Shown here in pieces: positions 871 to 17,508 of a stretch of DNA of 64,000 bases (the first letter of the stretch is position 1; every line of letters starts with the position of its first letter). The position numbers were made by a program, and so were the translations under genes. The notes beneath the pieces were generated by a model. That model searched no databases. It was not told the origin of the DNA and was given only the letters and a program-made list of their open reading frames with translations. Source of the stretch: Candidatus Wolfebacteria bacterium (GTDB lineage Bacteria; Patescibacteriota; Minisyncoccia; UBA6257; UBA9933); the NCBI GenBank assembly GCA_016214005.1, contig JACRPK010000006.1, forward strand, positions 17,719-81,718. The letters are read 5' to 3'.

Positions 871-931
871 ATTTTCGCCATTAACTTTTTTATTTTCGTG
901 AGTATAATACAGTGTAGAAACCTTGAAAAAT
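871..931 (+). promoter_or_regulatory. promoter cassette copy A (TTAACT 881-886, 16 nt, TATAAT 903-908, then GTAGAAACCTTGAAAAATA)
   Basis: Member of an 8-copy repeat family with near-consensus sigma70 -35/-10 and a conserved downstream box. Confidence 0.6.
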
Positions 932-992
932 AAAAATCTAGTCAATTTTTATTTTGACTAATTAACAAAGACTGGAAAGGAGAAGGTGAAAT

Positions 993-1097
993 ATGATAGG
1001 TCCTGAGGACTGGGACGACACTGCCTCAAAAGAGCAGGGGAACGATGGCGAGGATAGCGCCGATTCCAGTAGCAATTCCGATGGCTCTGACAGATAG
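993..1097 (+). CDS. small acidic peptide, 34 aa (MIGPEDWDDTASKEQGNDGEDSADSSSNSDGSDR); candidate precursor peptide
   Basis: ATG 8 nt after GGAGAAGGTGA. Followed by rho-independent terminator. Shares a DW motif with the peptides at 4399 and 6193. Confidence 0.4.
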   Translation: MIGPEDWDDTASKEQGNDGEDSADSSSNSDGSDR

Positions 1098-1146
1098 AGC
1101 CCCGCGCCATAATCCGCTTTCTCAAAAGGAAAGCGGATTTATATTT
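1098..1146 (+). terminator. rho-independent terminator (aatccgctttc...gaaagcggatt + T-run)
   Basis: Perfect 11-bp stem with 6-nt loop followed by TTTATATTTTT. Confidence 0.6.
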
Positions 1147-1156
1147 TTGGAACTTA

Positions 1157-2434
1157 ATGATATTATTTTTAAATATGGCTTTTTATAATAAACAATTCCA
1201 ATCATTTCAATTGAAGAATGGTTTGAATATCATTACTCGCCAAGATAATAATTCGGATATAGCGACATTATCATTTCGAATTAAGGCAGGCTCGCGATAT
1301 GAAAAAGAAAATGAGCTTGGTTATGCCCATCTTTTAGAACATATGCTTTTGAAAGGAACAAAAAATTTTCCTTCTCCTTTTGAAATTGGATATGCCGTTG
1401 ACAGGGCGGGGGCTTATTTAAATGCTTCTACTGGGCAGGAGTTGTCCAGCGTTTATATCCAAGTTGCCAAAGAAAAATGGCAAGAAATGTTTAAATTGCT
1501 TTGTGATATAATTTCAAACCCGATTTTTCAAAAAGAAATTTTTGAAAACGAGAAAAAAGTTATTTTTCAGGAAATCAAAAAAACGAATGATAATCCTAAT
1601 AAATATCTGTGGATCAAAACAATTAAAAATATTTTTAAAAATCATCCGCTTTCTCATCATCCGCTTGGTGATGAAGAAATTATCAAAAAAGCGGTCGTTG
1701 AAAATTTAATAGATTATCGGGAAAGATTATTTATTCCAAATAATATGGTTTTGATTGCCAATGGCGCGATTGATAATGAAGAATTGATAAGAATAACCGA
1801 ACAAGAATTTTCTGTTCAAGATAATATTCAACAAAAAAGCGGCCAGTTCGATTATTCTGTTCCTCAAATAAATAAAGGGGAAGGTTTCGAATATTTTAAT
1901 AGCAGTCAATCTTATTTTAATTTTAATTTTGTTTCCGCCAGGGCTGATTTAAAAGATTATCTGGCGCTTCAATTAATCTCTATTTTTTTGGGTTCTCTTA
2001 AAACATCAATTTTATATCAAGAGTTAAGGCAAAAAATGGGGTTAGTTTATAATGTTAACGCTTATAATACCGGCTATCAGGATGCAAATTTATTTTATAT
2101 TGAAACTTCCAGCAATTATCCGGACAAAGTTATCCCCATAGTAATTGAAAAATTGTTAAATTTTGAAAAATATTTTTCAGAGAGCCTTCTAAAAGAATAT
2201 CAAGAACAATATGTAAATTCTTTAATCCGTAAATTAAGCGATCCATTCAATGAAATAAAGTTTTTGTCAGAATATTGGTTTCTCTATAATGGCATTAATC
2301 AGCTTTCGGATTTAATCAATATTATAAATTCAATAAAATATGAAGATTTATTTAGGATTAAAAATCAATATTTGAACGAAAATAATCTGTTTATTATGAA
2401 AATCGGCAAAGATAATCCGCAAATCCCCGCATAA
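1157..2434 (+). CDS. M16-family (insulinase/pitrilysin-like) zinc metallopeptidase, 425 aa
   Basis: HxxEH zinc motif (HLLEHMLLKGT) near the N-terminus. Length is typical of an M16 subunit. Its stop codon TAA (2432-2434) lies inside promoter cassette B. Confidence 0.7.
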   Translation: MILFLNMAFYNKQFQSFQLKNGLNIITRQDNNSDIATLSFRIKAGSRYEKENELGYAHLLEHMLLKGTKNFPSPFEIGYAVDRAGAYLNASTGQELSSVYIQVAKEKWQEMFKLLCDIISNPIFQKEIFENEKKVIFQEIKKTNDNPNKYLWIKTIKNIFKNHPLSHHPLGDEEIIKKAVVENLIDYRERLFIPNNMVLIANGAIDNEELIRITEQEFSVQDNIQQKSGQFDYSVPQINKGEGFEYFNSSQSYFNFNFVSARADLKDYLALQLISIFLGSLKTSILYQELRQKMGLVYNVNAYNTGYQDANLFYIETSSNYPDKVIPIVIEKLLNFEKYFSESLLKEYQEQYVNSLIRKLSDPFNEIKFLSEYWFLYNGINQLSDLINIINSIKYEDLFRIKNQYLNENNLFIMKIGKDNPQIPA

Positions 2435-2506
2435 AACCTCGCTAATTCCCCCCATTGACTTTTTTGTTTTCGTGAGTATAATACAGGGTAGAAACTTTGA
2501 AAATAA
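2423..2506 (+). promoter_or_regulatory. promoter cassette copy B (ATCCCCGCATAAAACCTCGCTAATTCCCCCC + TTGACT 2455-2460, 16 nt, TATAAT 2477-2482 + TAGAAACTTTGAAAATA)
   Basis: Repeat family member including the conserved 5' extension. Confidence 0.6.
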
Positions 2507-2612
2507 TCAGAGGAAAATCTCTGTTTTTATATATGGCGAAATATCTAAATAAAAACGTGGCTAATTTTTATTTGGTTTTGATTAACTTATAGCTGGGAAG
2601 GAGGATGCGAAT

Positions 2613-2714
2613 ATGGGCGGTAAAGGCGGTTCGGGCGGTCATGGCGGTGGCAATGCTGGTTCTGGCGGGCAAAACGGTCAGGGTGGCATTCGCGGCGGTG
2701 GCAGAGGCCGATAA
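2613..2714 (+). CDS. small Gly-rich peptide, 33 aa (MGGKGGSGGHGGGNAGSGGQNGQGGIRGGGRGR); candidate precursor peptide
   Basis: ATG 8 nt after GGAGG. Leader is conserved with copy A (GGAG..G.GAATATG). Followed by terminator hairpin ccccgatgtgaac...gtttacatcgggg. Confidence 0.35.
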   Translation: MGGKGGSGGHGGGNAGSGGQNGQGGIRGGGRGR

Positions 2715-2716
2715 TT

Positions 2717-2762
2717 CGACCCCGATGTGAACAAATCAATGTTTACATCGGGGATTTTTTTA
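2717..2762 (+). terminator. rho-independent terminator
   Basis: ccccgatgtgaacaaatcaatgtttacatcgggg followed by a T-run. Confidence 0.6.
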
Positions 2763-2779
2763 TTTATACTTTATAAAAT

Positions 2780-3424
2780 ATGATAAAAATTCCTTTTTAT
2801 GAAAATTCGAAAGACGATACTCATTGTTTTCAGGCTTGCTTGAAATCAATATTGAAATTTTATTTTCCTAAAAAAAATTATAGTTTTAAATATTTAGACA
2901 GAGCGACGGCTCACAAAAAAAATAAATGGACATGGAATAGCGCCGTATTTTTATTTTTAGAAAAATTTGGTTTTGAAATTATAAATATTGAAGATTTTGA
3001 TTATGCAAAATTCGCGCGGCTCGGAGAGCAATACCTTAAGAGAATATGGATAGATGAAGTATTTCAGACTCAAAAAAAATTTTCGGATTTAAAAAATGAA
3101 CAGAAATTGGCTAAAAAGTTAATTAAAAATAAAAAAATTAAATTATTAAAACGGCCGGCAACGATAAGTGATATTAAAAAATTATTTATAAAAAATTATA
3201 TTATTTTAGTGAACATTAATCCTTTTATTTTAAATAATAAAAAAGGTTATTCATCTCATATTGTGATTATAACCGATATGAATAAATCAAAAATAACTTT
3301 TCATGATTCCGGTTTGCCTCCGCAAAAAAATAGGAAAGCCCCCATTAAACTTTTCTTAAAAGCGATGGAATATCCTTATAAAGAAGACGCTAGTATTATT
3401 GCATTAAGATTGTTTTTTCTGTAA
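2780..3424 (+). CDS. putative papain-fold cysteine peptidase (C39-like), 214 aa
   Basis: N-terminal DDTHCFQACLKSILKFYF (Cys in a C39-like context). Later GYSSHIVIITDMN (His) and FHDSG (Asp). The order Cys...His...Asp fits C39-like leader peptidases. Confidence 0.4.
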   Translation: MIKIPFYENSKDDTHCFQACLKSILKFYFPKKNYSFKYLDRATAHKKNKWTWNSAVFLFLEKFGFEIINIEDFDYAKFARLGEQYLKRIWIDEVFQTQKKFSDLKNEQKLAKKLIKNKKIKLLKRPATISDIKKLFIKNYIILVNINPFILNNKKGYSSHIVIITDMNKSKITFHDSGLPPQKNRKAPIKLFLKAMEYPYKEDASIIALRLFFL

Positions 3425-3436
3425 GTTTGTGCTTTA

Positions 3437-3490
3437 TCTTTAAAATATTTTTTGAATTAAATATATTCAATTTGCCCGCCCTTTTTTAAT
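3437..3490 (+). repeat. ~50 bp repeat AAATATTTTTTGAATTAAATATATT..TTTGCCCGCCCTTTTTTAATGAT (second copy 17484..17535)
   Basis: Near-identical string at both loci. At the second locus it contains the stop codon of the kinase-like gene. Confidence 0.5.
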
Positions 3491-3513
3491 GATCAAATTT
3501 AATGATCAAAAAT

Positions 3514-3672
3514 TACAGCGTCAAGAAAATATGTTTTTCAGAATGTCTCGGAGGCGCAAAAAGCTTGGTCTTTTGCGAAGCAAAAGTTTTTGCGCCGAGA
3601 GCCAAGCTCTTGATTTTTCGCTGGAAAAAAATCAAAGAGCGGTTCTGAAAAACATATTTTCTTGACGCTGTA
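3514..3672. mobile_element. MITE-like structured repeat copy 1 (30-bp perfect terminal inverted repeats TACAGCGTCAAGAAAATATGTTTTTCAGAA)
   Basis: Three copies in the window (also 41576..41711 and 55953..56112), each with internal nested inverted repeats. ORFs called inside it are spurious. Confidence 0.6.
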
Positions 3673-3699
3673 ATCCCCAAAAAGTTATCCACAGCCTGT

Positions 3700-3785
3700 T
3701 CTCTCCCCATTGACTTTTTCATTTTCCCAAGTATAATGTAGGATAGAAACTTTGAAAAATACCAGTTCTAAGGTTAGAAACTGGT
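3700..3785 (+). promoter_or_regulatory. promoter cassette copy C (TTGACT 3710-3715, 17 nt, TATAAT 3733-3738) plus leader hairpin CCAGTTCTAAGGTTAGAAACTGG
   Basis: Repeat family member. The hairpin-type leader is shared with copies E and H. Confidence 0.6.
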
Positions 3786-3820
3786 TAAAAAAAGAAAGAA
3801 AAGAAAGAGGGGATAGGAAA

Positions 3821-4399
3821 ATGAAATTTTCAACGCGCCATATTATTTTACGACCAATGGAGGAGAAAGATTTATCGATTTTACATCAATGGCGTAACGA
3901 TGGCGATTTTATTCAATATTGTTCCGTTCGTCGTTATCCCGTCGAATACGAAGAATTTATTAATGAGTTGCAAAAGGATTTTAAAAATGATAGGCATCGT
4001 CAATTTATCATAGAATTACAAAAAGAGCGTAAGGTTATCGGTACAACTTATTCTTACAATTTTAACTCAATAGATGGTTATGCGTTTATAACTATTTATC
4101 TCGAGGAAAGGTACCGCTATCGTGGATATGGAGCAGAAGCAGTCGCGCTATTTTTAAGATTTCTTTTTGAATCATATCCCCTCTATAAAATTTATATGGA
4201 AGTGTATGACTATAATCAGCACGCGCTTTCAATTTTGCAAAATGCTAGTTTTGAAGAAGAGGGAAGATTTAAGGAACACCGTTTTTTTCGTGAAGAACGA
4301 TATGATTTAATCAGATTTGCATTTTTTCAGAAATCATTAACAAAAGTTTTTGAATTTTTAGAGAATATAAAATTTTATCGGAAAGGAGGTGATGTCTAA
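3821..4399 (+). CDS. GNAT-family N-acetyltransferase, 192 aa
   Basis: MKFSTRHIILRPMEEKDLSILHQWRND... with acetyl-CoA binding motif region YRGYGAEAV. RBS GGATAGGAAAATG. Confidence 0.7.
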   Translation: MKFSTRHIILRPMEEKDLSILHQWRNDGDFIQYCSVRRYPVEYEEFINELQKDFKNDRHRQFIIELQKERKVIGTTYSYNFNSIDGYAFITIYLEERYRYRGYGAEAVALFLRFLFESYPLYKIYMEVYDYNQHALSILQNASFEEEGRFKEHRFFREERYDLIRFAFFQKSLTKVFEFLENIKFYRKGGDV

Positions 4400-4599
4400 T
4401 GGGTTGGTTTAGAGATAAGGGAAAAGAAGGCATATTTCTTGAGGGGAAATCCAGTCGAGAGCATACCCATAGAGATGGTTCTCATGGGCGCGATGTAGAA
4501 GCATATCGCAACACATATAATGAGGGTGAACAAGTCCACAGCGAGAAAGCGGATGACTGGGGAAAGGATCACGAAAGTTCTGGCGATAGCGGAAAATAA
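4399..4599 (+). CDS. small hydrophilic peptide, 66 aa (…EKADDWGKDHESSGDSGK); candidate precursor peptide
   Basis: TAATG stop/start overlap with the GNAT gene. GGAGGTGA sits 9 nt upstream. Homologous to the N-terminal part of the 6193 protein (HTxRD…DWGxxKD). Confidence 0.4.
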   Translation: MGWFRDKGKEGIFLEGKSSREHTHRDGSHGRDVEAYRNTYNEGEQVHSEKADDWGKDHESSGDSGK

Positions 4600-4616
4600 A
4601 GTGGCACTTAACTAAA

Positions 4617-4662
4617 TAGGGCAGAGAGCAAATACTCTCCGCCCTATATTTTATTTTGAGGT
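4617..4662 (+). terminator. rho-independent terminator (tagggcagagag…ctctccgcccta + T-run)
   Basis: Inverted repeat followed by TATTTTATTTT. Confidence 0.55.
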
Positions 4663-4697
4663 TTCATTTTAAGTAAGTTTAAATTATAATTTTTAAT

Positions 4698-5975
4698 ATG
4701 CGCGATACAAAACAAATATTAAAAAAACCATTATTCTATCTTGTTAATTTACCTCAAAAAACGGATAAGATTTATTTCGATATTTTTTATCGCAGGGGAA
4801 ACATATTCGATCCTCCAATGGCAATGGGCATGGCGCATATGCTTGAACATTATATGGTTGGGCATCTGAAACAAAAATACATTCGCGATCATTTTATGGT
4901 TGGGGGAAGCATAAGTAATAGCTTCACAAATTTTTATCTTATTTCCAGCACACGTCAATTATTGTTAGATTTGCAGATTTTTTTAAGCGGAATTTTTAGA
5001 CCAGAATTTTCAGATAAAACAATTTTTGAATATGAGCTTAAAGCAGTTCGGAATGAAATTGCCGAAAAAAAACACGACATTGAATCGCAGATATTTGATG
5101 TTATTTCAAAAAAAATATTTTTAGGCGATTGTCCGTATCGCGCGGCAAATAATGAAAAAAATAAATATTTTGAAAAATTTACTCTTCATGACATACAGCA
5201 ATTTTACTTAAAAGATTTTTCAACCATAGAACCTTTGTTTGTTATAGGCGGTTATAATATAAACGATCGTTTGCTTAAAGAAGTTATTATTCTTATTCGC
5301 GAATTTTTACCGCAACGATTGCACTTATTTAATCATTTCAATTTTCCCAAATGCATTCCTCGCAGTTTTAACGTTGAAGCGATAAAAAACAAAAACATTA
5401 AAAGTGGGGCATATTCAGTGTTCACTTTTCCCGGTTTTTCAATGCAAGATCATGATTTTCGCTTGAGAATGGGGTTGCATGTGTTGTTAAAAATACTCAC
5501 AGGAAGTTCGCCATTCGGTTTGTCCATAGAAACCCGCAAATTAGGAATCTATAATATTTCTTATAAAAATATTATGAGACCGAGGATAGGGATTGTTTCA
5601 TTATTTTCTTTTACTGAAAATAATCAAATTTTCGCTTTGGCAAAACTAATTAAAGATCATATCGATTTGTTAAAAAAAGATCTTATAAACGAACAATATA
5701 TTTCAAAAATTGTTAACGACGCAAAAAATAAGCAAAAGGCGATTTGGGAAAATAACGAGAATAAATATAATTGGATCATAGATGATTTTAAATATTTAAA
5801 GTTTAATATTAACATCACGGCGGAAAAGAAAATATTGGATTCAATAACGCCTCAGTTTTTGCGGGAAATTGCAAATACAATTTTTAATTGGAGGAAATTC
5901 AATATGTTTGTTATATATAATGATATAAATAATCCACAGATAGGAAAAATAAAAAAAATTTTTCAAAATAATTAA
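4698..5975 (+). CDS. M16-family zinc metallopeptidase paralog, 425 aa
   Basis: HxxEH motif (MAHMLEHYMVGHL). Same length as 1157..2434. Confidence 0.65.
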   Translation: MRDTKQILKKPLFYLVNLPQKTDKIYFDIFYRRGNIFDPPMAMGMAHMLEHYMVGHLKQKYIRDHFMVGGSISNSFTNFYLISSTRQLLLDLQIFLSGIFRPEFSDKTIFEYELKAVRNEIAEKKHDIESQIFDVISKKIFLGDCPYRAANNEKNKYFEKFTLHDIQQFYLKDFSTIEPLFVIGGYNINDRLLKEVIILIREFLPQRLHLFNHFNFPKCIPRSFNVEAIKNKNIKSGAYSVFTFPGFSMQDHDFRLRMGLHVLLKILTGSSPFGLSIETRKLGIYNISYKNIMRPRIGIVSLFSFTENNQIFALAKLIKDHIDLLKKDLINEQYISKIVNDAKNKQKAIWENNENKYNWIIDDFKYLKFNINITAEKKILDSITPQFLREIANTIFNWRKFNMFVIYNDINNPQIGKIKKIFQNN

Positions 5976-5986
5976 CTTTGATCCGA

Positions 5987-6070
5987 ATCCCCGCATAAAA
6001 CCTCGCTAATTTCGCCATTGACTTTTTCATTTTCCCAAGTATAATATAGTGTAGAAACTTTGAAAAATAA
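5987..6070 (+). promoter_or_regulatory. promoter cassette copy D (TTGACT 6018-6023, 16 nt, TATAAT 6040-6045)
   Basis: Repeat family member. Followed by type-II leader ACGCATCCCTGCCTGCCGGCAGGCAGGTTTGTGAATGTGTTAATAAGAAAACCGG. Confidence 0.6.
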
Positions 6071-6077
6071 CGCATCC

Positions 6078-6097
6078 CTGCCTGCCGGCAGGCAGGT
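6078..6097. repeat. 20-bp perfect palindrome CCTGCCTGCCGGCAGGCAGG (copy 1 of 4)
   Basis: Identical palindrome at 11152..11171, 41542..41561 and 55922-ish (core CCTGCCGGCAGG). Confidence 0.6.
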
Positions 6098-6136
6098 TTG
6101 TGAATGTGTTAATAAGAAAACCGGACTTCATATTTT

Positions 6137-6154
6137 GCTATCACTAATGATAGC
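6137..6154. promoter_or_regulatory. 18-bp palindromic operator-like site GCTATCACTAATGATAGC (copy 1 of 5)
   Basis: Same palindrome (GCTATCAC yRr GTGATAGC) at 25155, 42593, 43143 and 43461. Confidence 0.45.
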
Positions 6155-6192
6155 GTGGTCAAAAATAAGTAAAGAAAGAGAGGAATTGAATT

Positions 6193-6576
6193 ATGGGTGG
6201 ATATTCTGAAAAAGATGCGGCAAAAGATACTAATTCTAGTATGAAAGAAACAAAAGATGCTTGGCATACTGCAAGAGATGATGCTGCTGAAGAAGGCGAT
6301 TGGGGTGTGCCAAAAGACAGACATGGTGAAGGATGTTTTATAGCGACTGCGGCTTATGGAAGCTATTTCGAGCCTCACGTAAAAATTCTCAGGGATTTTA
6401 GAGATATTTTTCTTGTGGAGAGTATTTTGGGAAGATTATTCATAAAAATTTATTATTGTATCAGTCCGTTTATTTCCGGTATTATTGAAAAAAGTGAAAT
6501 TTTAAAGAAAATTATGCGAATAATTCTTTCGCCGATAGCATTGTTGATTGAACATATATTTATAAAGCGCTTTTAA
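6193..6576 (+). CDS. 127-aa protein: N-terminal hydrophilic DW-motif peptide region fused to a C-terminal GCFIATAAYGS…LRDFRD…hydrophobic module
   Basis: N-terminal 47 aa are homologous to the 4399 peptide. C-terminus carries CFIATAAYGS followed by LRDFRD and a hydrophobic stretch. I recall this as a conserved C-terminal module of secreted/anchored proteins but cannot name the family with certainty. Confidence 0.5.
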   Translation: MGGYSEKDAAKDTNSSMKETKDAWHTARDDAAEEGDWGVPKDRHGEGCFIATAAYGSYFEPHVKILRDFRDIFLVESILGRLFIKIYYCISPFISGIIEKSEILKKIMRIILSPIALLIEHIFIKRF

Positions 6577-6610
6577 GCGCTTTTTATTTTGGCAAAATTA
6601 TTCATAATAT

Positions 6611-6895
6611 GTGATAATAATAAATATGGGAAAAGAAAATCAAAAAAATCCTGCCTGCGTTATTTTGTGGCAAGATGCGGCATATTCATATGAGAAAGAA
6701 TTTCCGAAAGAATTTCCATTGCCACAATTAACAGCTGGTTTTATTATTTCCGCTAATGATGAAGACGATTTTATAAATATTGCCATGAATGTTGAATATG
6801 ATGAAAAAACCGGTAAATTATATCCGCTCGATGGATTTTTAATACCAAAAAAATCGAAAATTGAATTCAGGAATATGGGATTTTTTAATGAATAA
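6611..6895 (+). CDS. hypothetical protein, 94 aa
   Basis: ORF with ATG start. No recognisable motif. Confidence 0.35.
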   Translation: MIIINMGKENQKNPACVILWQDAAYSYEKEFPKEFPLPQLTAGFIISANDEDDFINIAMNVEYDEKTGKLYPLDGFLIPKKSKIEFRNMGFFNE

Positions 6896-6900
6896 AATTT

Positions 6901-7161
6901 ATGGATAAAAAGAGAATTAAAGTTTATTGGGCAGACGCTGTATTTTATAAAAAGAGTAAAAATATTGGCGATGGTCTGACTAAAATGATAACTATTGGGG
7001 AATTATTCATTGAAAATGAAAAATTTATTGTGATAAAATATCCAAAATCAATTAAAGAAAATAAGCCATTATTATTTCAATTATTTAAGAGATTCTTATC
7101 AAAAAAACCCACTTACTTATTTATTCCCCGCGGAATGATAAGAAACATTATTTTATATTAA
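6901..7161 (+). CDS. hypothetical protein, 86 aa
   Basis: ORF with ATG start. No recognisable motif. Confidence 0.35.
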   Translation: MDKKRIKVYWADAVFYKKSKNIGDGLTKMITIGELFIENEKFIVIKYPKSIKENKPLLFQLFKRFLSKKPTYLFIPRGMIRNIILY

Positions 7162-7164
7162 TAT

Positions 7165-7275
7165 ATCCCCGCATAAAACCTCGCTAATTCCCCCCCCATT
7201 AACTTTTTTGTTTTCGTGAGTATAATACAGTGTAGAAACCTTGAAAAACACCAGTTCTAAGGTTAGAAACTGGTT
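7165..7275 (+). promoter_or_regulatory. promoter cassette copy E (TTAACT 7199-7204, 16 nt, TATAAT 7221-7226) plus hairpin leader
   Basis: Repeat family member. Confidence 0.6.
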
Positions 7276-7310
7276 AAAAAAAGAGAGAAAAGAAAGAGAG
7301 GATAAGGAAA

Positions 7311-8444: not shown

Positions 8445-8465
8445 AAAGGCAGAAAGGAGATAGCA

Positions 8466-8633: not shown

Positions 8634-8639
8634 TATATA

Positions 8640-9760: not shown

Positions 9761-9864
9761 GCATTCGCGAGGAGTGTGGCAACAACGGATAATTTTATTT
9801 ATTATAGACTATAGATGGAGCAGAATGGTTCTGTTCCGCCAAACACCTTAAAAAGGAGACGACC

Positions 9865-10443: not shown

Positions 10444-10573
10444 CTCCACACGGCACGCGAGTAGCATCTGCCGCCAAGGGATACCCCTTGGCGGCAGATT
10501 TAATTTTAAAACCAGGTATAAAATAGGCACATCAGGGGATTTATGAATAGCATTAGAACCCACCCCCTTGTAT

Positions 10574-11044: not shown

Positions 11045-11087
11045 TTATATATACTAGCAAAATTTTGTGGGTTAGGAAACAAGCGCT

Positions 11088-11171
11088 GTCCATTGACTTT
11101 TTCATTTTCCCGAGTATAATATAGGGTAGAAACTTTGAAAAATAACGCATCCCTGCCTGCCGGCAGGCAGG
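11088..11171 (+). promoter_or_regulatory. promoter cassette copy G (TTGACT 11093-11098, 16 nt, TATAAT 11115-11120) with type-II leader containing the 20-bp palindrome
   Basis: Repeat family member. Confidence 0.6.
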
Positions 11172-11272
11172 TTTGTGAATGTGTTAATAAGAAAACCGGT
11201 ACTACTATTGATAGTAGTGCCAAAGATATTTCAGACAAAGAAAGAAAAGAAAAAGAAAGAGAGGATGGGAAA

Positions 11273-12253
11273 ATGAAAGAAGCAATTCTTATTTTAACTA
11301 ATTCCGAAGATGGTAAACATACGGATGTTGTGCTTGAGAAACTTCAACAGGCTGATCAGAATGTTTTTCGTTTTGATTCAGATCGTTTTGCAAATGGTGA
11401 GATTATAATTGATTTTGAGAATAACCATCGGAGATGCGAATTTGCGATGTATTCTCATGATCAAGTGATAAATTCAAGAAATATTAAAAGTGTTTGGTAT
11501 CGTAGGCCTAATCATTTTAACTTGCAAATTCAAGATCTCGTTCAGCGTAATTATGCCGAACAAGAGATTAAAAATTTGCTAGATGGATTATGGACGATGG
11601 TGCCGGATATTTTTTGGTTAAGCAATCCGAAAAGCCTTGAACAAGCGCGGAAAAAACTTTTTCAATTAAAACTTGCTCGCGAGCTTGGATTCTTAATACC
11701 AGAAACAATAGTTACCAATGACCCAAATCGTGTTCATGAATTTTTTAAGACCTACAATGGTAAGATAGTTTTTAAAGCTTTTTATCATGAATTTCTAAAT
11801 TATGGAGATCGCGCATTTAATATTCCGACTACGCTTATAACAGAAAAACACCTAGAAAAACTTGAGCTTGTCAAGAAAATGCCATGTCTATTTCAAGAAT
11901 TTATCGATAAAAAATACGAGCTAAGAATAACGGTTGTAGGACAAAAAATTTTTCCAGTCAAAATTTATTCTCAAGAAAATTCTCAAACAACTGTTGATTG
12001 GAGAAATCCGGAGTTTATTAATAAACTCCGTTATGAAGTTGTTAGTATCCCAGAAGCGCTTGTTAAAACCTGTTTAACTATGTTGAATGAGCTTGAGCTT
12101 TCGTTTGGAGCTTTTGATTTTGTAGTTGATAAAATAGGGGAAATCTTTTTTCTTGAAATTAACCCTAATGGACAATGGTATTGGATGGAAAGTCAAACAA
12201 ATGTGCCAATTTCTGATGCCATTGTTGATATTCTAAGTTTAGAAAGGAGGTGA
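11273..12253 (+). CDS. ATP-grasp ligase (RimK/MdnC-like; candidate peptide macrocyclase), 326 aa
   Basis: N-terminal MKEAILILTNSEDGKHTDVV and central/C-terminal ATP-grasp regions (ELRITVVGQKIF…FDFVVDKIGEIFFLEINPNGQW). The called ORF begins inside the leader, so the start is set at 11273. Confidence 0.6.
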   Translation: MKEAILILTNSEDGKHTDVVLEKLQQADQNVFRFDSDRFANGEIIIDFENNHRRCEFAMYSHDQVINSRNIKSVWYRRPNHFNLQIQDLVQRNYAEQEIKNLLDGLWTMVPDIFWLSNPKSLEQARKKLFQLKLARELGFLIPETIVTNDPNRVHEFFKTYNGKIVFKAFYHEFLNYGDRAFNIPTTLITEKHLEKLELVKKMPCLFQEFIDKKYELRITVVGQKIFPVKIYSQENSQTTVDWRNPEFINKLRYEVVSIPEALVKTCLTMLNELELSFGAFDFVVDKIGEIFFLEINPNGQWYWMESQTNVPISDAIVDILSLERR

Positions 12254-12259
12254 TAGATT

Positions 12260-12370
12260 ATGAGTCCTGAGATTTTTGCGGCAATTTGCGCCGTGGAATC
12301 ATCAGAACAACTCTCTGAAGTTACGGCGAGTTGGACTGGCCAGGGGTCTTTCAAACATCAAGACGACTAG
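12260..12370 (+). CDS. small peptide, 36 aa (MSPEIFAAICAVESSEQLSEVTASWTGQGSFKHQDD); candidate ATP-grasp substrate
   Basis: AAAGGAGGTGA overlaps the ATP-grasp stop and the ATG is 7 nt downstream. Ser/Thr and C-terminal Asp residues present. Terminator follows. Confidence 0.4.
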   Translation: MSPEIFAAICAVESSEQLSEVTASWTGQGSFKHQDD

Positions 12371-12392
12371 GCAGATTAGTCGGGGACCCAAA

Positions 12393-12432
12393 ATAGGGAG
12401 TGGCGATAAGCTGCTCCCTATATTTATTTTTA
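12393..12432 (+). terminator. rho-independent terminator (atagggagtggcgataagctgctccctat + T-run)
   Basis: Inverted repeat followed by ATTTATTTTT. Confidence 0.5.
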
Positions 12433-12457
12433 ATATAATATTCATTAAAATATAAAT

Positions 12458-13165
12458 ATGTTAAATATACATCTTGAAAATTCAAAACAAACTAAATTTA
12501 TTTTAATAGGAGAAATTCATGGCATAAAGGAAAATATTGAGATATTAAAATCAATAATACAATCATATTTAAAAAGTAAAAATAATAATAAATTAATTTT
12601 AGCATTGGAATGGCCATATCAATTAACAGATGAAATTAATAAATATATAGATAATAATCTGACACAATTAAAATGGCAGAAATGGGATTTTATTAAAAAT
12701 AATGATGGAAGAATATCTAAAGAACATATACTTTTTTTAAAGTGGCTTAAAAATATTAATCGCAATCTCTTAAAAAATAAAAAAATTAAAATTCAATGTT
12801 TTGATGTAATTGAAAAAAAATGGAATAAAAGGGATAAAAAAATGGCGAATATATTACTCAAGTTGAAAAAGAGAAAAAATATTCAATTAGTTGCGATTAT
12901 GGGGAATTTTCATGCTTCAAAAATGGTATTTTATTTTGGTGGCAACAAATATATTCCTCTTGGATCATATTTTCCTCTTGATACAACAATATCTATTAAA
13001 TTAGAATATTGTTCTGGTTATTTTTATAATGAATATTCTAAAAAAATTCCTTCTCACAAAAATATAAATACAATTAAAAAATCTAAATTGCAAAAGAATA
13101 AAAAATCTGAATATGATTATATTTTTTTAATAAAAAAAGCTCATTCAACAAAGCCGTTATATTAA
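12458..13165 (+). CDS. hypothetical protein, extremely AT-rich; possible Tiki/TraB/ChaN-like GxxH…E…GxxH metalloprotein
   Basis: IGEIHG … ALEWP … MGNFHA in that order resembles the Tiki/TraB/ChaN motif layout. Local GC is about 20%. Confidence 0.3.
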   Translation: MLNIHLENSKQTKFILIGEIHGIKENIEILKSIIQSYLKSKNNNKLILALEWPYQLTDEINKYIDNNLTQLKWQKWDFIKNNDGRISKEHILFLKWLKNINRNLLKNKKIKIQCFDVIEKKWNKRDKKMANILLKLKKRKNIQLVAIMGNFHASKMVFYFGGNKYIPLGSYFPLDTTISIKLEYCSGYFYNEYSKKIPSHKNINTIKKSKLQKNKKSEYDYIFLIKKAHSTKPLY

Positions 13166-13179
13166 TAAATTTAAAGTTA

Positions 13180-13716
13180 ATGAATAAAAATTTAGTAAAA
13201 ATTATAAATGAAATGGCCGCCATTGATCAAAAGATGAGAAGAAATGCGATGAAAACTGGAATTTGGGATAAGATGGTTGATAGAAAAAATATATTAAAAA
13301 TAAAAAAAATTATTAAAAAATTTGGTTGGCCGACGATTGGTCTTGTTGGTAAAAAAGCTAGTTGGAATGCGTGGTTAATTATTCAACACGCCGATCATGA
13401 TATTCGGTTTCAAAAAACTATTTTAAGTCTGCTCGAAAAAATTTATAATAAAAATTCATTAGAAATAGATAAAAATAATATAGCGTTTTTAAAAGATAGA
13501 ATTTTAATAAATGAAGGGAAGCATCAAGTATTTGGGACACAATTTTATACAAATAAAAAAGGAATTTTTGGACCGAGGTCGATAAAAGATATTAAAAATC
13601 TTGATAAAAAAAGAAAAGAATATAATCTGCCGCCATTTAGTGAATATAAAAAATTAATAAATAATTACAAAGTTGTTCCGATTAAAAAAAATAATAAAAA
13701 TAATCACCGCCATTGA
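13180..13716 (+). CDS. hypothetical protein, 178 aa, very AT-rich
   Basis: ORF only. Its 3' end abuts promoter cassette H. Confidence 0.35.
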   Translation: MNKNLVKIINEMAAIDQKMRRNAMKTGIWDKMVDRKNILKIKKIIKKFGWPTIGLVGKKASWNAWLIIQHADHDIRFQKTILSLLEKIYNKNSLEIDKNNIAFLKDRILINEGKHQVFGTQFYTNKKGIFGPRSIKDIKNLDKKRKEYNLPPFSEYKKLINNYKVVPIKKNNKNNHRH

Positions 13717-13788
13717 CTTTTTTATTTTCCCGAGTATAATATAAAATAGAAACTTTGAAAAATACCAGTTCTAAGGTTAGAAACTGGT
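13705..13788 (+). promoter_or_regulatory. promoter cassette copy H (TTGACT 13713-13718, 16 nt, TATAAT 13735-13740) plus hairpin leader
   Basis: Repeat family member. Confidence 0.6.
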
Positions 13789-13824
13789 AAAAAAAAGAAA
13801 GAAAAAGAAAGAGAGGATAAGGAA

Positions 13825-15134
13825 ATGAAAAAGGAAATGCAGTTGAAATTGCCTTGGTTCCCGATCTTAGATATCTTGCTGGTTATTTTGTTGGGTGTGG
13901 TTTTGTTTGGTTGCGGAAGCAAAAAGGACAACAACAATAACAACAACAATAACAACGTTGTTGTCCAAAAGCCCACAGTCATTTTAACCGCCTCCGAGAC
14001 AAGCATCTGGAGAGGAAAGAAAATAACTCTTAGCTGGGAAGCTAAGAACGCCAATAGCTGCAAAGCTGTGATGTTAATCCCACCGATACCACCACCTACA
14101 GCATCACTTGCTATGGGGAGGATGGCAATTCAGCAGACGATGCCAAAAGCATCAGTGTTGATCTCTGGAAACTGCCGACTAAGTGGCATGGGGGGAATAT
14201 TAATGTTCGCGTCGCTAGCTCTGCCAAAACCAGCGATGGTATTTGGTTCGGCGAATGGTATGCTCCCAATGTCGTCAAATTCAACCTTGCCGGCAAAGTT
14301 CAATGTTCCATAGCCAAAGGTTATTATGTAGAAACTATCGCTTCCTATAGCGACAAGATCTACGCTCTTTGGCATGATGGTGACAGCGCTAGCAGTCCAG
14401 GCCACATTTCCATTTTTGACAACAACTGCAAAGAGTTGCAAGTCATTGAACCGCCGACGGGATATGTCTTTGGCAGGCTTCTGGGTGGGGGAACAATGGT
14501 TGTTGATCAAAACGGCATTGTTGTCCTTGCTTCCAATAACCCCTCAGAAGAGCTGTTTCACCTTGATTTAAATGGAAATTTCATTGGACAGCCCTTTTCG
14601 ATTACAGGCAGTACAGCTGTAATGACATTTGGTGTGACTGTTAGCAATGGAATTTCTTATACAATCGGGTTGGATACCGTAAATGGCCTCACTACAGCAG
14701 TTATTGTCAGCCATACCCTTGACAGCGCTGGCAATAATTGGGTGAATAATTCTTGGCGCTCTACTGCTTTAACAGGAGAAGCGTATACCCAAGATCTTTT
14801 CTATGCTGTCGCAGTCGGCCAAGACGGAATATACGTAGGCGGAGCAGTGACTGTTACTTATCCCAATGGCAGCGGGGATTGGACTTATCTTCTCGTCAAA
14901 TACGATTTCTTGGGAAATCGGCTTTGGCTCGTAGAAGACCGAAAGAAGAAAACGATCAACGGCCTTGCTGTTGACAGCAATGGCTATCTTTACACCAATG
15001 TTGGTGAAAAGATAAACCCTGCCGATGGTTCCGTTGTCTGGAGCATTGGAAAAACCTGCGGAGAGTCTGTTATCGTAGACAATGGAATTTTCTATGCCCG
15101 CCCTTTTTTATTTTTTGCGGAATTTGACAAATGA
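13825..15134 (+). CDS. lipoprotein with Ig-like domain and beta-propeller-like repeats; reading frame broken near 14060 (frame switches by 1 nt)
   Basis: Lipobox LFGC|GS and an Asn run. Frame A up to ~14060 (…ITLSWEAKNANSC) continues in frame C as DVNPTDTTTYSITCYGEDG…, a typical Ig-like strand pattern, through to 15134. The ORF track splits this into 13825..14313 and 14436..15134. Confidence 0.55.
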
Positions 15135-15199
15135 ATTTAACTTGTTATGCTAAAATCAGCATTTAGCTCTTTTAAAATAAAATAAGGAGAATATCGGCA

Positions 15200-16399
15200 A
15201 TGTCGACAATTATATGGCGAAATGTTGGAGAATATACTCATTTTTTAAATTGTGTGAATGGGCACATTGTTTCTTTCAAAGTAGATAGCGCGGAAGCAAA
15301 GAAAATTATAAATAACCCCAATCATTATGAATTTGATTGCGAAGCGGAAAAAGTTTTTAGGACAACAGGCAATCAATATAATTCTAGATTATGCCGCGGA
15401 AATTTGATTAAACTTGGTTTAGAATTTAAATTTCCGACAATAGTGAATATTGAATTAAGCAGGAGATGCTCATTAAGATGCATCCATTGTTATATTGGAA
15501 ATAAAAATTTAAGTTCATCTGAATTAAGTGTTTTTGAAAAAATGGATGATTGCAATATAGACGGATTCTTAAAAAAACTTAAAGATTTGGGAGTTTTTCT
15601 TGTCGTAATAACTGGAGGAGAGCCGTTTATTAGCAAAAAACTTCAAAATTTTTTGCGGATAGCAACAGAAAAAGGATTTTTGATAGAAATATTCAGTAAT
15701 TTACAAAATTTACCCGATTGGTTTTTGCGTAATAAATATGAGGATTTTAGAATAGGTAGAATACAGACTTCAATTTATTCATCTATATTTAAAATTCACG
15801 ATGAAATAACAAAAAGTGCTGGTTCTTTAAAACGCAATCTTAAAAATCTTAATTTATTAATAAAAAATGGGTATTTTGTTGAAGTAGCTACGCCTTTAAT
15901 GAGAAAAAATATCATTTCATGGGAGAGAACTAAATTTTTCTTTGAAGAAAAGAAAATCTCTCAAAATTTTTCTTGGCCGATAGCCGATGAATATTATGGG
16001 ACAAAAAAGAAAAGCAGTTTAAATATTTTTGGTCAAAGTTTTAGTCATTTTATAGAAAAAAATTTAGATTTTCTTTTAGAAAAAAAGTGTTTTGAATCCG
16101 ACGAATATATCTGCGAAGCGGAGAAAGCTATATTCGCGGTATCTGCGACAGGCGACGTTTTCCCATGTAGTCAGATGCCATTACCAGTTGGAAATATATG
16201 CAATAAAAAAATTAAAGATATTATATATGGGAAAGATATGTCTAAAATTGGCTCATTAAAATGGAAAGATGTTTTAAAAGAAAAAGTTTTTAATTTTTGT
16301 CCTGGCATCAATTATACTGATGCAGGAGATGTTTTAATCAAACCAAAACATATGTTCGGCGCGATAGCAACTCTTAATAATAAAATGGAAAGGAGGTGA
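15200..16399 (+). CDS. radical SAM / SPASM-like enzyme with ~85-aa N-terminal extension (candidate RiPP recognition element), 399 aa
   Basis: CxxxCxxC (RRCSLRCIHCYIG) at residues ~89-96, GGEPF, and C-terminal Cys residues (CEAEKAIFAVSATGDVFPCSQMP). The extension before the core is typical of RiPP maturases. Confidence 0.7.
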   Translation: MSTIIWRNVGEYTHFLNCVNGHIVSFKVDSAEAKKIINNPNHYEFDCEAEKVFRTTGNQYNSRLCRGNLIKLGLEFKFPTIVNIELSRRCSLRCIHCYIGNKNLSSSELSVFEKMDDCNIDGFLKKLKDLGVFLVVITGGEPFISKKLQNFLRIATEKGFLIEIFSNLQNLPDWFLRNKYEDFRIGRIQTSIYSSIFKIHDEITKSAGSLKRNLKNLNLLIKNGYFVEVATPLMRKNIISWERTKFFFEEKKISQNFSWPIADEYYGTKKKSSLNIFGQSFSHFIEKNLDFLLEKKCFESDEYICEAEKAIFAVSATGDVFPCSQMPLPVGNICNKKIKDIIYGKDMSKIGSLKWKDVLKEKVFNFCPGINYTDAGDVLIKPKHMFGAIATLNNKMERR

Positions 16400-16405
16400 A
16401 TATTG

Positions 16406-16498
16406 ATGAAAAAATCAATAAAAACCGCGTGGTCATCAAGTAGGAGCAGTAAATCATCCACTTGCCCGGGATGTTCCTCGCGCAGTTCTACCCATTAA
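16406..16498 (+). CDS. small Ser/Cys-rich peptide, 30 aa (MKKSIKTAWSSSRSSKSSTCPGCSSRSSTH); candidate precursor
   Basis: AAAGGAGGTGA overlaps the rSAM stop and the ATG is 7 nt after. 12 Ser, 2 Thr, 2 Cys in 30 aa. Terminator hairpin gggagaatgatttaaacaattctccc follows. Confidence 0.4.
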   Translation: MKKSIKTAWSSSRSSKSSTCPGCSSRSSTH

Positions 16499-16551
16499 AA
16501 ATGGGATTTGGGAGAATGATTTAAACAATTCTCCCTTTTTTTATTTCATTA

Positions 16552-17508
16552 ATGAATGTTATCATTAAAATAATGAATTATTTGATAACAGAAAAGATTA
16601 AAAAAGAATATAATTTAAAGAATCCGGTTTTTCTAAAAAAATTTGAAACGCGAGGGCAGCGGCGCGTTTTTTTAATCATTGATAATAAAAATAAATATGT
16701 TATTAAAATTATTCCGAATAAAAAAGAATTAATTGCGAAATTGGAATTTATATCCAAGATCAAAAATAAAATAATCAATTTTCCTAGAATTATTGATACA
16801 AAATCAAATAAAAAATATTTTTTTCAGTCCGGTAATTTTTTTTTCTTATCGGAATTTATTGATGAAAAAGAAAATATGCCGTCACTGAATTTTTTTTCAA
16901 AATTAGGCTATGCTGTTGGAGAATTTCATAAAATTGAAACAGAAAATAGCAAAATTTTAAATTTAAATATTGGGGAAAAAATTAAAAAATTAAAAACATT
17001 ATTTTCAAAAAAGAATATAGATATTAAAATCAAAAATCAAATAATCAATTTTCTTGATTCATTCCCGCCAATATCTGGCGCGACAATTGGTCCAGTTCAT
17101 GGGGATATAAGCTATTTTAATGTTTTGGGCAAAGAAAAACTTTTTTTAATTGATTTTGATGATATATCGCGCGGTCCGATTGTTTATGATCTTGGGCAGA
17201 TGGTCGCTTTTATGTTTAATCTTATCCCTTTTGATTTTCTTAAGTTTGAGATGAAAATAAAACGTATATCGCAGCCCGTTTTTTTAATGAGCGGATTTAA
17301 AATTTTTTTAAAAAATTATTCTCGAAAAATAAAATTATCTCGCCATGATATAGAAATTTTACCAAAAATGGCTATGTTGGTGTGCTTGGAAAATGTTTAT
17401 TTAGAGTCAATTGACGGAATATTTAAATGGAATTTTAAGAGATTCAAAAAAATAGAAAAAGAACAAGATTTAATAAAACAATTATCTTTAAAATATTTTT
17501 TGAATTAA
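16552..17508 (+). CDS. aminoglycoside-phosphotransferase/protein-kinase-like fold protein, 318 aa
   Basis: Brenner-type motif VHGDISYFNV and LIDFDD (DxD) in the expected order. Confidence 0.5.
   Translation: MNVIIKIMNYLITEKIKKEYNLKNPVFLKKFETRGQRRVFLIIDNKNKYVIKIIPNKKELIAKLEFISKIKNKIINFPRIIDTKSNKKYFFQSGNFFFLSEFIDEKENMPSLNFFSKLGYAVGEFHKIETENSKILNLNIGEKIKKLKTLFSKKNIDIKIKNQIINFLDSFPPISGATIGPVHGDISYFNVLGKEKLFLIDFDDISRGPIVYDLGQMVAFMFNLIPFDFLKFEMKIKRISQPVFLMSGFKIFLKNYSRKIKLSRHDIEILPKMAMLVCLENVYLESIDGIFKWNFKRFKKIEKEQDLIKQLSLKYFLN

Follow-up and report, generated by a model that had tools for sequence, protein, structure and literature searches.

A candidate mosaic of RiPP-like peptide modules behind repeated promoter-leaders in Candidatus Wolfebacteria

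The 64-kb stretch of DNA considered here (the window) belongs to an 84-kb contig of a Candidatus Wolfebacteria metagenome-assembled genome (MAG; Patescibacteria, or Candidate Phyla Radiation, CPR), as identified by exact protein matches to the locus tags HZC33_*, and holds an island of ~17 kb with a GC content of 0.329, compared with 0.364 for the window as a whole. Six small open reading frames (ORFs), termed pepA to pepF, stand in this island beside two radical SAM (rSAM) enzymes, an ATP-grasp ligase, GNAT acetyltransferases, a C39-like cysteine peptidase, two M16 metallopeptidases and a kinase-fold protein, with eight copies of a promoter-leader repeat (P1 to P8) distributed among them. An earlier note, made from the sequence alone, had taken the island for one system of peptides that are made by the ribosome and modified after translation (RiPPs), perhaps of a new kind. 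The analysis presented here points instead to a probable mosaic of at least five independent RiPP-like modules, each with a small gene that resembles a precursor gene, the modifying enzyme that goes with it and an enzyme that may process the product. Positions are those of the window, genes lie on the forward strand unless stated otherwise, and related loci and contigs are cited by L numbers.

All six small ORFs are present where the earlier note had placed them, each with a purine-rich Shine-Dalgarno (SD) sequence, and its claim of a terminator behind each peptide gene also holds, with a terminator-like hairpin and T-run following all six. These ORFs are pepA (993-1097), which encodes 34 aa of acidic character (MIGPEDWDDTASKEQGNDGEDSADSSSNSDGSDR) behind the SD AAGGAGAAGGTGA and has its terminator at 1111-1139; pepB (2613-2714; 33 aa, Gly-rich and basic, MGGKGGSGGHGGGNAGSGGQNGQGGIRGGGRGR; terminator 2720-2753); pepC (4399-4599; 66 aa, hydrophilic and rich in His, Asp and Gly; terminator 4616-4647); pepD (8466-8633; 55 aa with the C-terminal patch CKWPDWNNAPDF; terminator 8651-8681); pepE (12260-12370; 36 aa, MSPEIFAAICAVESSEQLSEVTASWTGQGSFKHQDD, a candidate graspetide-type precursor; terminator 12393-12421); and pepF (16406-16498; 30 aa, Ser-rich, MKKSIKTAWSSSRSSKSSTCPGCSSRSSTH, ending in CPGCSSRSSTH; terminator ~16510-16535). 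All six peptides are extremely hydrophilic. When both strands of the complete window were screened for ORFs of 25-70 aa that begin with ATG and have both an SD and, within 90 nt, a terminator, eight distinct ORFs emerged, five of which are among these six; pepE was left out because the mismatches in its terminator stem exceeded the filter, its terminator being recovered by a separate terminator scan.

Existing annotation passes over most of these genes, with GenBank covering only pepD, pepA and pepC called only on Logan contigs, and pepB, pepE and pepF absent from a collection of 15 billion proteins. Comparison of the six peptides with NCBIfam and Pfam gave no family even at E values up to 1. 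Conservation of the small ORFs in related genomes, which the earlier note had proposed as a check, was found for five of the six, with relatives encoded beside the same enzyme families in other Patescibacteria. Together with the SD and terminator of each gene, this conservation shows, at the level of sequence, that the small genes are real. The proposed pairing of small precursor-like genes with modifying enzymes is likewise borne out by the cross-genome synteny of these five peptides, by the MvdD-type character of the ATP-grasp enzyme and by a model of the second rSAM enzyme that matches RiPP maturases best. The suggestion that pepA is also a precursor finds no comparative support.

The 12-mer GAAAGGAGGTGA, a perfect SD sequence, occurs exactly three times in the 64 kb, at 4381, 12242 and 16388, always on the forward strand and only at the GNAT1-pepC, ATP-grasp-pepE and rSAM2-pepF junctions. 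A common coupling arrangement had been described for these pairs, with the motif overlapping the enzyme stop and the peptide ATG 7-9 nt downstream. The motif does lie at the end of the enzyme gene in all three, but only two of the enzyme genes, those of the ATP-grasp and rSAM2, use its TGA as their stop codon and end ...ERR-TGA; in the remaining pair the motif overlaps the last codons of GNAT1, whose stop is the TAA of TAATG. The distance had been misjudged, with the ATG 6 nt after the motif in all three cases. A shorter SD core, AAGGAGGTGA, overlaps the enzyme stop at enzyme-peptide junctions of L002, L005, L008 and L010 and is found almost nowhere else in those loci. At 6921-7040 of L010, the ...ERR-stop of a further rSAM gene (478 aa) falls within AAGGAGGTGA, and behind it comes a 34-aa ORF that had not been called, MQKTQQKQQRPALKVKPLPKLKVLCTCQQPSNCH. 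The 16S rRNA gene of the window has its 3' end at 37319 (region 37310-37330), where ...GCGTGGATCA is followed by TTTAAATT, with the canonical CCTCCTT anti-SD tail absent, and the only occurrences of CACCTCCTT in the window are those complementary to the three perfect SD sites; the missing tail may be an assembly artefact or a real loss.

The promoter-leader repeats are ~80-120 nt long, 65-98% identical and confined to the forward strand and to the island, with the ~80-nt repeat copies spanning 851-13764 and the full cassettes 851-13824. In the alignment each reads ATT(G/A)ACTTTTT...TATAAT with a 16-nt spacer, then TAGAAAC(T/C)TTGAAAAA, and the promoter pattern yields eight matches where none is expected from shuffled sequence. 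The cassettes are P1 (851-992; TTAACT-16-TATAAT, then TAGAAACCTTGAAAAATA and a leader hairpin), P2 (2425-2612), P3 (3680-3820), P4 (5988-6192), P5 (7169-7310), P6 (9678-9864), P7 (11063-11272) and P8 (13683-13824). P3, P5 and P8 have a type-A leader with a common hairpin, ACCAGTTCTAAGGTTAGAAACTGGT, and a purine-rich ribosome-binding site (RBS), and P4 and P7, which are 98% identical over 110 nt, have a type-B leader with two hairpins each; a C-rich upstream segment, CCCCGCATAAAACCTCGCTAATTCCCCCC, is found in five of the eight, in full in P2, P4, P5 and P6 and only in part in P1 or P3. Transcription units one to seven each have a cassette at their head, as has the unit immediately upstream of the last (pepF) set, and all forward-strand genes of the island lie downstream of one of the eight promoters. 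A terminator closes the promoter-proximal gene or enzyme-peptide pair, and the AT-rich peptidase, kinase and DUF genes (GC 0.21-0.30) all lie downstream of terminators. Judged from these elements, the eight cassettes are sigma-70-type promoter-leaders that start transcription units, and the small genes have the sequence signals expected of strong transcription and translation.

Searching genome, metagenome and viral contig collections with the pattern TTTTCNNNAGTATAATN{5,6}TAGAAACYTTGAAAA gave no match, the source genome not being among the GTDB representatives; as far as these three public collections show, the promoter repeat is specific to this genome. Related loci have repeated promoter-leaders of their own, differing in sequence, with five units in L010 (5384-5497, 10511-10624, 15847-15960, 7904-7986 and 13134-13216), three in L014 (3872-3987, 6454-6569 and 7587-7638) and two each in L008 (5461-5532 and 11895-11966), L002 (2663-2756 and 4804-4897), L005 (8814-8864 and 9880-9930) and L023 (3670-3778 and 5369-5477). 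These repeats precede RiPP-like or accessory genes and are lineage-specific in sequence, those of L005 and L010 resembling each other in the form TTGACAAA...TACTAAAATCAG.

The enzyme families that had been named were confirmed, with the reservation that one rSAM gene contains an in-frame TAA and that the second M16 protein is very divergent. The module closest to a described class is that of the MvdC/MvdD-type ATP-grasp peptide ligase (11273-12253), whose ...ERR-TGA end lies inside GAAAGGAGGTGA. It matches PF21068 (E 2e-17), scores 249, 238 and 219 bits against TIGR04187, TIGR04185 and TIGR04184, all below the curated cut-offs of 350-475, and finds 5ig8/5ig9 (MdnC/MdnB) in the PDB at E values of 4e-51 and 1e-45, with the pre-ATP-grasp domain of MvdC/MvdD (MdnB/MdnC)-type graspetide ligases recognisable. 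The 372-aa GenBank model (HZC33_01175) uses a TTG start within the repeated leader of P7 (11135-11272), the conserved protein beginning at the ATG at 11273. Homologues are widespread in Patescibacteria (586 matches), and in L002 and L005, where the enzymes are 67-69% identical to this one, a 37-38-aa ORF begins 5 nt behind the ligase gene, with a DUF6624 gene next in line. These two pepE relatives, MNPQIFAAVCAVESVAQLPQVSASWTTGSGTGSDPDDL and MDPEIFAALCAVELVDPVSKVGGSWTTGSGTGSDPDD, have in common with pepE an M.P.IFAA.CAVE start and an SWT.G.G...DD end, providing a core of Thr/Ser and Asp suitable, on sequence, for ring formation (SWTGQGSFKHQDD in pepE, SWTTGSGTGSDPDD(L) in the relatives). Behind pepE lie a ChaN/Tiki-superfamily gene (12458-13165; weak Pfam match; GC 0.21) and the DUF6624 gene (13180-13716), the conserved partner of the ATP-grasp and peptide pair.

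Graspetide loci of the CPR have been described by Makarova et al. (2022, Biol Direct 17:7, PMC8939145), who report 'branch 1/2' ATP-grasp enzymes with Tiki/TraB, zincin, SPASM and 'cluster 23' genes, and found no precursors for most branch-2 loci. To speak of a new kind for the ATP-grasp module was therefore too strong. The present module belongs among those loci and resembles them in its MvdC/MvdD-type ligase with pre-ATP-grasp domain, in a very small precursor next to it that has what looks like a hydrophobic leader motif and a core of the Thr/Ser...Asp type, and in an island setting with accessory Tiki/TraB-like, zincin and SPASM genes and a conserved uncharacterised partner, DUF6624 probably corresponding to 'cluster 23'. 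The M.P.IFAA.CAVE leader resembles, and is not identical to, the Phhx(1,2)h / PFFARFL-like motif of that study, and a precursor of the pepE type (..P.IFAA.CAVE....SWT.G.G...DD) was not found in the stored text of its supplement. The module differs from the described loci in its core spacing, which departs from the TxxxTx(6-10)Dx(1-4)D signature, and in its place within a larger island under a repeated promoter. Literature searches for RiPPs in Patescibacteria and for the CFI-box gave nothing specific besides PMC8939145.

The second rSAM enzyme, rSAM2 (15200-16399), combines a radical SAM core (PF04055, E 7e-10) with a C-terminal auxiliary-cluster domain (PF13186, E 4e-6), and it has 63 homologues; the cysteines C90, C94 and C97 are invariant, together with three more, C305, C323 and C367. 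An AlphaFold2 (AF2) model (pLDDT 89.5) forms three strands and three helices over residues 4-76, resembling a RiPP recognition element (RRE), and the best PDB fold matches of the full-length model are SkfB, SuiB and CteB; no PqqD match was found in Pfam. Membership of a curated family of the AlbA, SkfB, PapB, StsB or CteB type is not reached, with best NCBIfam scores of 30-63 bits against cut-offs of 300-850. A small ORF follows the rSAM gene in L008, L010 and L012 and precedes an APH-type kinase gene in L008 and L010, as pepF here precedes an APH/CotS-type kinase-fold gene (16552-17508). In four lineages pepF and its relatives end in C.GC.SR(S/G)STH, placing a Cys-containing precursor next to the enzyme, and IK..W is kept in four of the six aligned peptides of the family, one variant being without it. 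The set resembles the SkfB, CteB and SuiB systems in the CxxxCxxC core, the auxiliary Cys-cluster domain, the modelled N-terminal beta3-alpha3 domain and the Cys-containing peptide gene directly behind. It departs from these classes in that the sequences are barely similar (SkfB, E 8.5e-5), that only three invariant Cys residues are found beyond the core, that an APH-type kinase is a conserved partner, which is unusual for them, and that the peptide is Ser-rich and very hydrophilic with an invariant R(S/G)STH end.

The acetyltransferase GNAT1 (3821-4399), whose TAA stop overlaps the pepC ATG, has no close relatives in GTDB genomes. The pepC family comprises 14 cluster representatives of 52-150 aa among 1.84e9 proteins, with H22, G30 and Y40 invariant. 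In metagenome loci, which were scanned with an alignment of six sequences, relatives of pepC adjoin GNAT1 homologues in L014-L017 and are preceded by a partial GNAT ORF in L019 and L020, while in L014 and L020 they adjoin homologues of M16b (4698-5975), the divergent M16-like peptidase encoded downstream of pepC. M16b retains an HxxEH motif (HMLEH), weak Pfam matches in the right order (E 0.015 and 0.029) and BLAST similarity to M16a (E 4e-4). In L020 a 581-aa ORF lies just downstream of the M16b-like gene and looks, from reading by eye only, like an ABC-type transporter.

The C39-like protein (2780-3424) is a stand-alone papain-fold cysteine peptidase or transpeptidase of 214 aa with C16, H160 and D176 invariant. 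Its Pfam match (E 1e-4) lies below the gathering score; some of its 38 homologues match PF03412 or PF13529, and the AF2 model (pLDDT 96) finds PCAT1, ComA and LahT by Foldseek at TM about 0.5, consistent with a C39 domain with a Cys/His/Asp triad. Among the best fold matches are also the isopeptidase PeiR and the amide-forming papain-like enzymes AziU3/U2, CtaG and phytochelatin synthase, so that ligase or transpeptidase chemistry appears equally possible. Gly-rich basic relatives of pepB, MGKKGPSPHGKGSGGGKGGGGKPGKPGH and ...SSGKGGHGKGKDGSGGGNKSNAGGIRSGTRGK, each with its own promoter and terminator, are encoded directly upstream of C39-like genes in L021 and L023 and keep an invariant His and a GGIR.G.RG end; L024, a third lineage with a C39-like gene, has no pepB-like ORF. 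The pair resembles PCAT1/ComA and LahT150 systems in the papain-like fold and triad and in the small upstream-encoded peptide full of GG pairs. It differs from the PCAT/ComA type in that the enzyme stands alone, with no transporter in the island or in the related loci L021-L026, and in that pepB has no recognisable leader.

The remaining peptidase, M16a (1157-2434; PF00675 and PF05193; HLLEH motif), follows pepA, whose only analogue, by composition alone, is found in L013, where an rSAM gene and an M16a-like gene flank an acidic ORF of 44 aa. In the alb cluster of subtilosin, the rSAM enzyme AlbA is encoded with the M16 peptidases AlbE and AlbF, and a parallel to it had been drawn. The rSAM/SPASM enzymes and two M16 proteins do occur together in this one locus, but the M16 genes follow pepA and the pepC/GNAT1 pair and not an rSAM gene, and the score for the AlbA family is only 43.8 bits against a cut-off of 850.

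The first rSAM gene, rSAM1 (7311-8444), encodes an rSAM/SPASM enzyme of the anaerobic sulfatase-maturating enzyme (anSME)/DynA-like clade and is interrupted by an in-frame TAA at 7620-7622 in place of the Gln of 'AIQTNATL', at which position the L010 orthologue is intact. This reflects either a pseudogene, through a Gln-to-stop change, or a sequence error in the MAG. An alternative genetic code was considered and rejected, TAA also ending several island genes and the orthologue having Gln there. NCBIfam scores are 256.6 bits for TIGR03942 (anSME; cut-off 349.45), 211.8 for DynA (450), 163 for DarW (650) and 143 for GrrM (310), no cut-off of a cyclophane- or darobactin-type family being reached, and the best PDB sequence match is an anSME (E 4e-47). 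Behind rSAM1 stand pepD and, convergent with it on the reverse strand, a gene for an HExxH (WHETIHL) protein (8683-9585). The same arrangement is seen in L010, where the intact rSAM1 orthologue precedes a Trp/Asp-rich peptide of 68 aa that ends ...GWDDQWLNWDKLDDEDDGHGWGDIGD and, convergent with it, the HExxH orthologue (50% identical); a second, paralogous trio, with its own HExxH paralogue in the same position, has a peptide ending ...EPIWDVDWDNGVDHSHSD.

Aromatic cross-link motifs are typical of cyclophane-forming RiPP classes, and the three pepD-family sequences conserve a W-x-D-W-x-N-like patch of Trp and Asp(Asn), seen as WPD-WNN in pepD and as WDD-Q-WLN-WDK and WDV-D-WDN in L010. The Lys of the K-W pair in pepD (CKWPDW), on which a streptide-like crosslink had been proposed, is K39 and is not conserved in either related peptide. 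In addition, rSAM1 is closest to anSME, DynA, DarW and GrrM, and the enzyme gene is interrupted. That proposal therefore does not stand. No StrB-type family is among the best 25 of the 74 NCBIfam matches of rSAM1, and SuiB, of the streptide system, is only a fold match, and of rSAM2. The likeness of the set to DynA, DarE/DarW and GrrM/XyeB systems lies in the rSAM1 scores of 143-257 bits and in the Trp-x-Asp/Asn-rich C-terminal patch, reminiscent of such cross-link motifs; the differences are that every score falls below its cut-off, that the gene is interrupted, that the motif comes from three sequences and that the convergent HExxH partner is specific to the pepD set.

Taken together, the modules do not behave as one system, as the earlier note had supposed. 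The ATP-grasp triad stands alone in L002 and L005, the C39-like pair lies among housekeeping genes in L021, and other rSAM combinations are found in L008, L010 and L012; since the modules occur alone or recombined elsewhere, the island appears to be an aggregate and not one pathway. Outside the graspetide-like module, the enzymes belong to known superfamilies but, as judged by profile scores, reach no curated family cut-off, and their peptides lie outside curated precursor families. Several observations weigh against a mosaic of RiPP-like modules. All NCBIfam scores of the enzymes are below curated cut-offs, none of the six peptides matches a curated precursor family, pepA has no relatives in the searches made, the pepD family alignment consists of three sequences only, and conservation of pepC extends over the entire sequence, as in a small folded protein, with no usual split into leader and core. 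Two genes are disrupted (rSAM1 by its TAA, a lipoprotein gene by a frameshift), which may point to decay in part of the island or to errors in the MAG. No transporter gene is found in the island, and this, the two disrupted genes and the conservation pattern of pepC speak against a classical bacteriocin. The promoter repeats, at ~100 nt, could also have misled the assembler on module order: Logan short-read contigs from the same sample (L027, 1489 nt; L001, 2732 nt) stop close to them, so that the repeats seem to break assemblies and the module order in the MAG is to be taken with caution.

That pepC is conserved throughout, with His, Gly, Tyr and Trp at invariant positions, also lends itself to another explanation, in which the small hydrophilic products, above all those of pepA, pepB and pepC, are cellular proteins and not natural-product precursors: disordered or metal-binding stress proteins, or RGG-like nucleic-acid binders, which the GNAT and the peptidases would modify or turn over inside the cell as part of normal protein regulation. 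The RGG-like end of pepB (GGIRGGGRGR), the extreme hydrophilicity of the peptides and the want of an exporter in the island would all fit. We nonetheless regard it as unlikely, as the small genes are repeatedly and tightly linked with peptidases (M16b and the C39-like enzyme), with the transporter-like ORF of L020 besides, as their promoter and SD architecture is that of the clear RiPP modules of pepE and pepF, and as modules of this kind lie beside bona fide RiPP maturases in several genomes. Very unlikely, in our judgement, is the view that an accessory region is seen here in decay or in part wrongly assembled, and that its repeats and small ORFs serve no function at present. The stop codon and the frameshift, the 16S gene without its 3' tail and the short-read contigs that stop near repeats speak for it, but the majority of the genes are undamaged, promoters, perfect SDs and terminators have all been kept, and the modules are conserved across lineages; moreover, the window shares 99.9% identity with L001, an independent contig of this sample, across rSAM2, pepF and the kinase gene, L001 having an extra ~89 nt upstream.

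Two narrower alternatives concern single modules. Since pepA and pepB are mini-ORFs close to a promoter, each with a terminator immediately behind it and a peptidase gene beyond, they could be read as leader peptides of transcription attenuators, in which translation of the Asp/Ser-rich or Gly-rich sequence would control the terminator before that gene, the more so as pepB is about 60% Gly. Against this, the pepB relatives keep peptide-level features (the invariant His and the GGIR.G.RG end) and not a mere codon bias, the genes downstream encode peptidases and not amino-acid biosynthesis, and the same layout of ORF and terminator recurs behind enzymes in other modules, where attenuation would be senseless; such a function is highly improbable. 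We give next to no credence to the idea that rSAM1 is an anSME of primary metabolism and pepD unrelated to it. Whilst anSME provides both the best NCBIfam and the best PDB sequence match, the former falls short of its cut-off, with DynA, DarW, GrrM and other RiPP maturases scoring nearly as high, no sulfatase occurs among the island proteins (only these being covered), the trio of enzyme, peptide and HExxH protein recurs twice in L010, and a C/S-x-P/A-x-R motif is not common to the pepD relatives. The mosaic of RiPP-like modules accordingly remains the reading we favour.

Outside the modules, the island contains further genes behind the same cassettes. P4 precedes the gene of a CFI-box-CTERM protein (6193-6576; NF041770, E 5e-26), with a hydrophilic N-terminal stretch of 47 aa before the CFIATAAYGS domain; the protein has no relatives in viral contigs, and a kinship of its N-terminus with pepC, suspected from a common DWG.KD.H motif, was rejected on a profile comparison probability of 0.2%. 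Two small ORFs with no family found follow (6626-6895 and 6901-7161). Behind P6 lies a 192-aa ORF (9865-10443; terminator 10466-10499 with a 15-bp stem) with a GC content of 0.55, against 0.21-0.33 in its surroundings; searches of Pfam, NCBIfam, PHROGs and PADLOC placed it in no family, and it was probably acquired recently from a foreign source. PHROGs and PADLOC gave no match for any of the proteins without a family, so that nothing points to a phage or defence origin. A second GNAT acetyltransferase is encoded on the reverse strand (10574-11044), and P8 precedes the lipoprotein-like gene (13825-15134), in which the signal peptide (...LFGC) and an Ig-like start lie in one frame and the repeat-rich remainder in another, owing to one frameshift near 14055-14075.

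Several structural features of the DNA were also recorded. Between the C39-like gene and P3, a 163-nt element (3512-3674) has perfect 32-nt inverted terminal arms (ATTACAGCGTCAAGAAAATATGTTTTTCAGAA) and internal hairpins. A 3' flank, TTATCTTTAAAATATTTTTTGAATTAAATATATT...TTTGCCCGCCCTTTTTTAATGAT, is common to 3434-3493, after the C39-like gene, and 17482-17537, after the kinase gene (100% identical, 34 nt), with a shorter copy at 15081-15115 after the lipoprotein gene; behind the kinase gene it is followed by a hairpin with 16-nt arms (17530-17598). Just downstream of the island, 18802-20000 holds tandem duplicated units of about 580-1040 nt (18802-18852 and 19380-19430, 98%; 18843-18910 and 19882-19949, 96%), within which an 86-aa ORF (18850-19110) appears HicB-like by eye, near a GIY-YIG gene (17624-17893). 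An Rfam scan of the whole window found the 16S rRNA gene and RNase P RNA and no match for 23S; over positions 1-18000 no Rfam match was obtained at E values up to 0.1, so that neither the leaders nor the 163-nt palindrome corresponds to a known RNA family.

Multi-operon bacteriocin loci such as pln of Lactobacillus plantarum and blp of pneumococci have shared promoters, and the island resembles them in that several transcription units of one locus have a conserved promoter region. However, the repeats here extend over 80-120 nt at 65-98% identity, 5' leader included, far beyond what a regulator site needs, the island encodes no regulator, pheromone or histidine kinase, and the repeat sequence is lineage-specific, as the three collections showed. 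A tentative and rather doubtful proposal is that the cassettes form a lineage-specific 'plug-in expression platform', in which independently acquired payloads stand behind copies of one strong unit of promoter, 5' hairpin and RBS. The payloads would be the RiPP modules, the GC-55% foreign ORF and the lipoprotein gene, and recombination between copies would shuffle, add and delete modules. Fitting this proposal, the related islands (L010, L008, L014, L002, L005 and L023) have different repeated promoter-leaders of their own, module combinations vary between genomes, and a cassette has overwritten M16a at its end, where the last five codons lie inside P2. In function such a platform would parallel an integron, except that each cassette would have its own promoter. 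An integron-like cassette array itself was rejected, there being no integrase among the island proteins and no conserved 3' site found, with the repeat forming a promoter at the 5' end of each unit.

In lantibiotic operons the precursor gene is followed by a leaky terminator, and the island is similar in having a terminator directly behind the precursor gene and ahead of the processing genes. Under the mosaic of RiPP-like modules, each cassette would yield a strongly transcribed short mRNA with a stem-loop at its 5' end and its 3' end at the terminator that closely follows the peptide gene, and the peptide would be translated far more efficiently than the enzyme upstream. Genes past the terminator (M16a, C39-like, M16b, Tiki-like, DUF6624 and kinase) would receive read-through transcripts only, with terminators and SDs setting a high ratio of substrate to enzyme, as in lantibiotic operons. 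The ATP-grasp ligase would then make side-chain ester or amide rings from Thr/Ser to Asp in the pepE core, whilst rSAM2 would bind the pepF leader through its RRE-like domain and introduce Cys- or Trp-centred cross-links around the conserved CxxCxxRSSTH end, with the APH-type kinase phosphorylating Ser/Thr of pepF. GNAT1 would acylate pepC and M16b trim it, the C39-like enzyme would process the Gly-rich pepB by cleavage or ligation, and rSAM1, here apparently inactivated by its nonsense codon, would cross-link the Trp/Asp patch of pepD. The products would be small, very hydrophilic peptides, presumably released and acting on a host or on competitors.

What is new here lies within a known general kind and is moderate in extent, namely the sets of precursors and enzymes and the repeated promoter-leader architecture. 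Should the ATP-grasp enzyme belong to branch 2, the pepE family would provide the kind of precursor missing for most such loci in the 2022 survey. The pairs of pepB with the C39-like enzyme, pepC with GNAT and M16, and pepF with rSAM and kinase are three conserved candidate enzyme-substrate pairs without a curated family, and these sets could represent three new RiPP classes with unusually hydrophilic products. The signature of an ...ERR-stop inside GAAAGGAGGTGA with an ATG 6 nt later offers a practical handle for finding unannotated precursor candidates, and the promoter-leader repeats provide a lead on how genes are controlled and islands put together in a phylum of which few regulators are known.

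The genomes of Patescibacteria are tiny, the cells live attached to other microbes, and to our knowledge almost nothing is known of the molecules that they use on hosts or competitors. In the present genome, ~17 kb and, as judged from sequence, the strongest promoters and RBSs of the window are spent on modules for small, presumably modified peptides, which suggests that even such minimal bacteria as these invest heavily in modified peptides.

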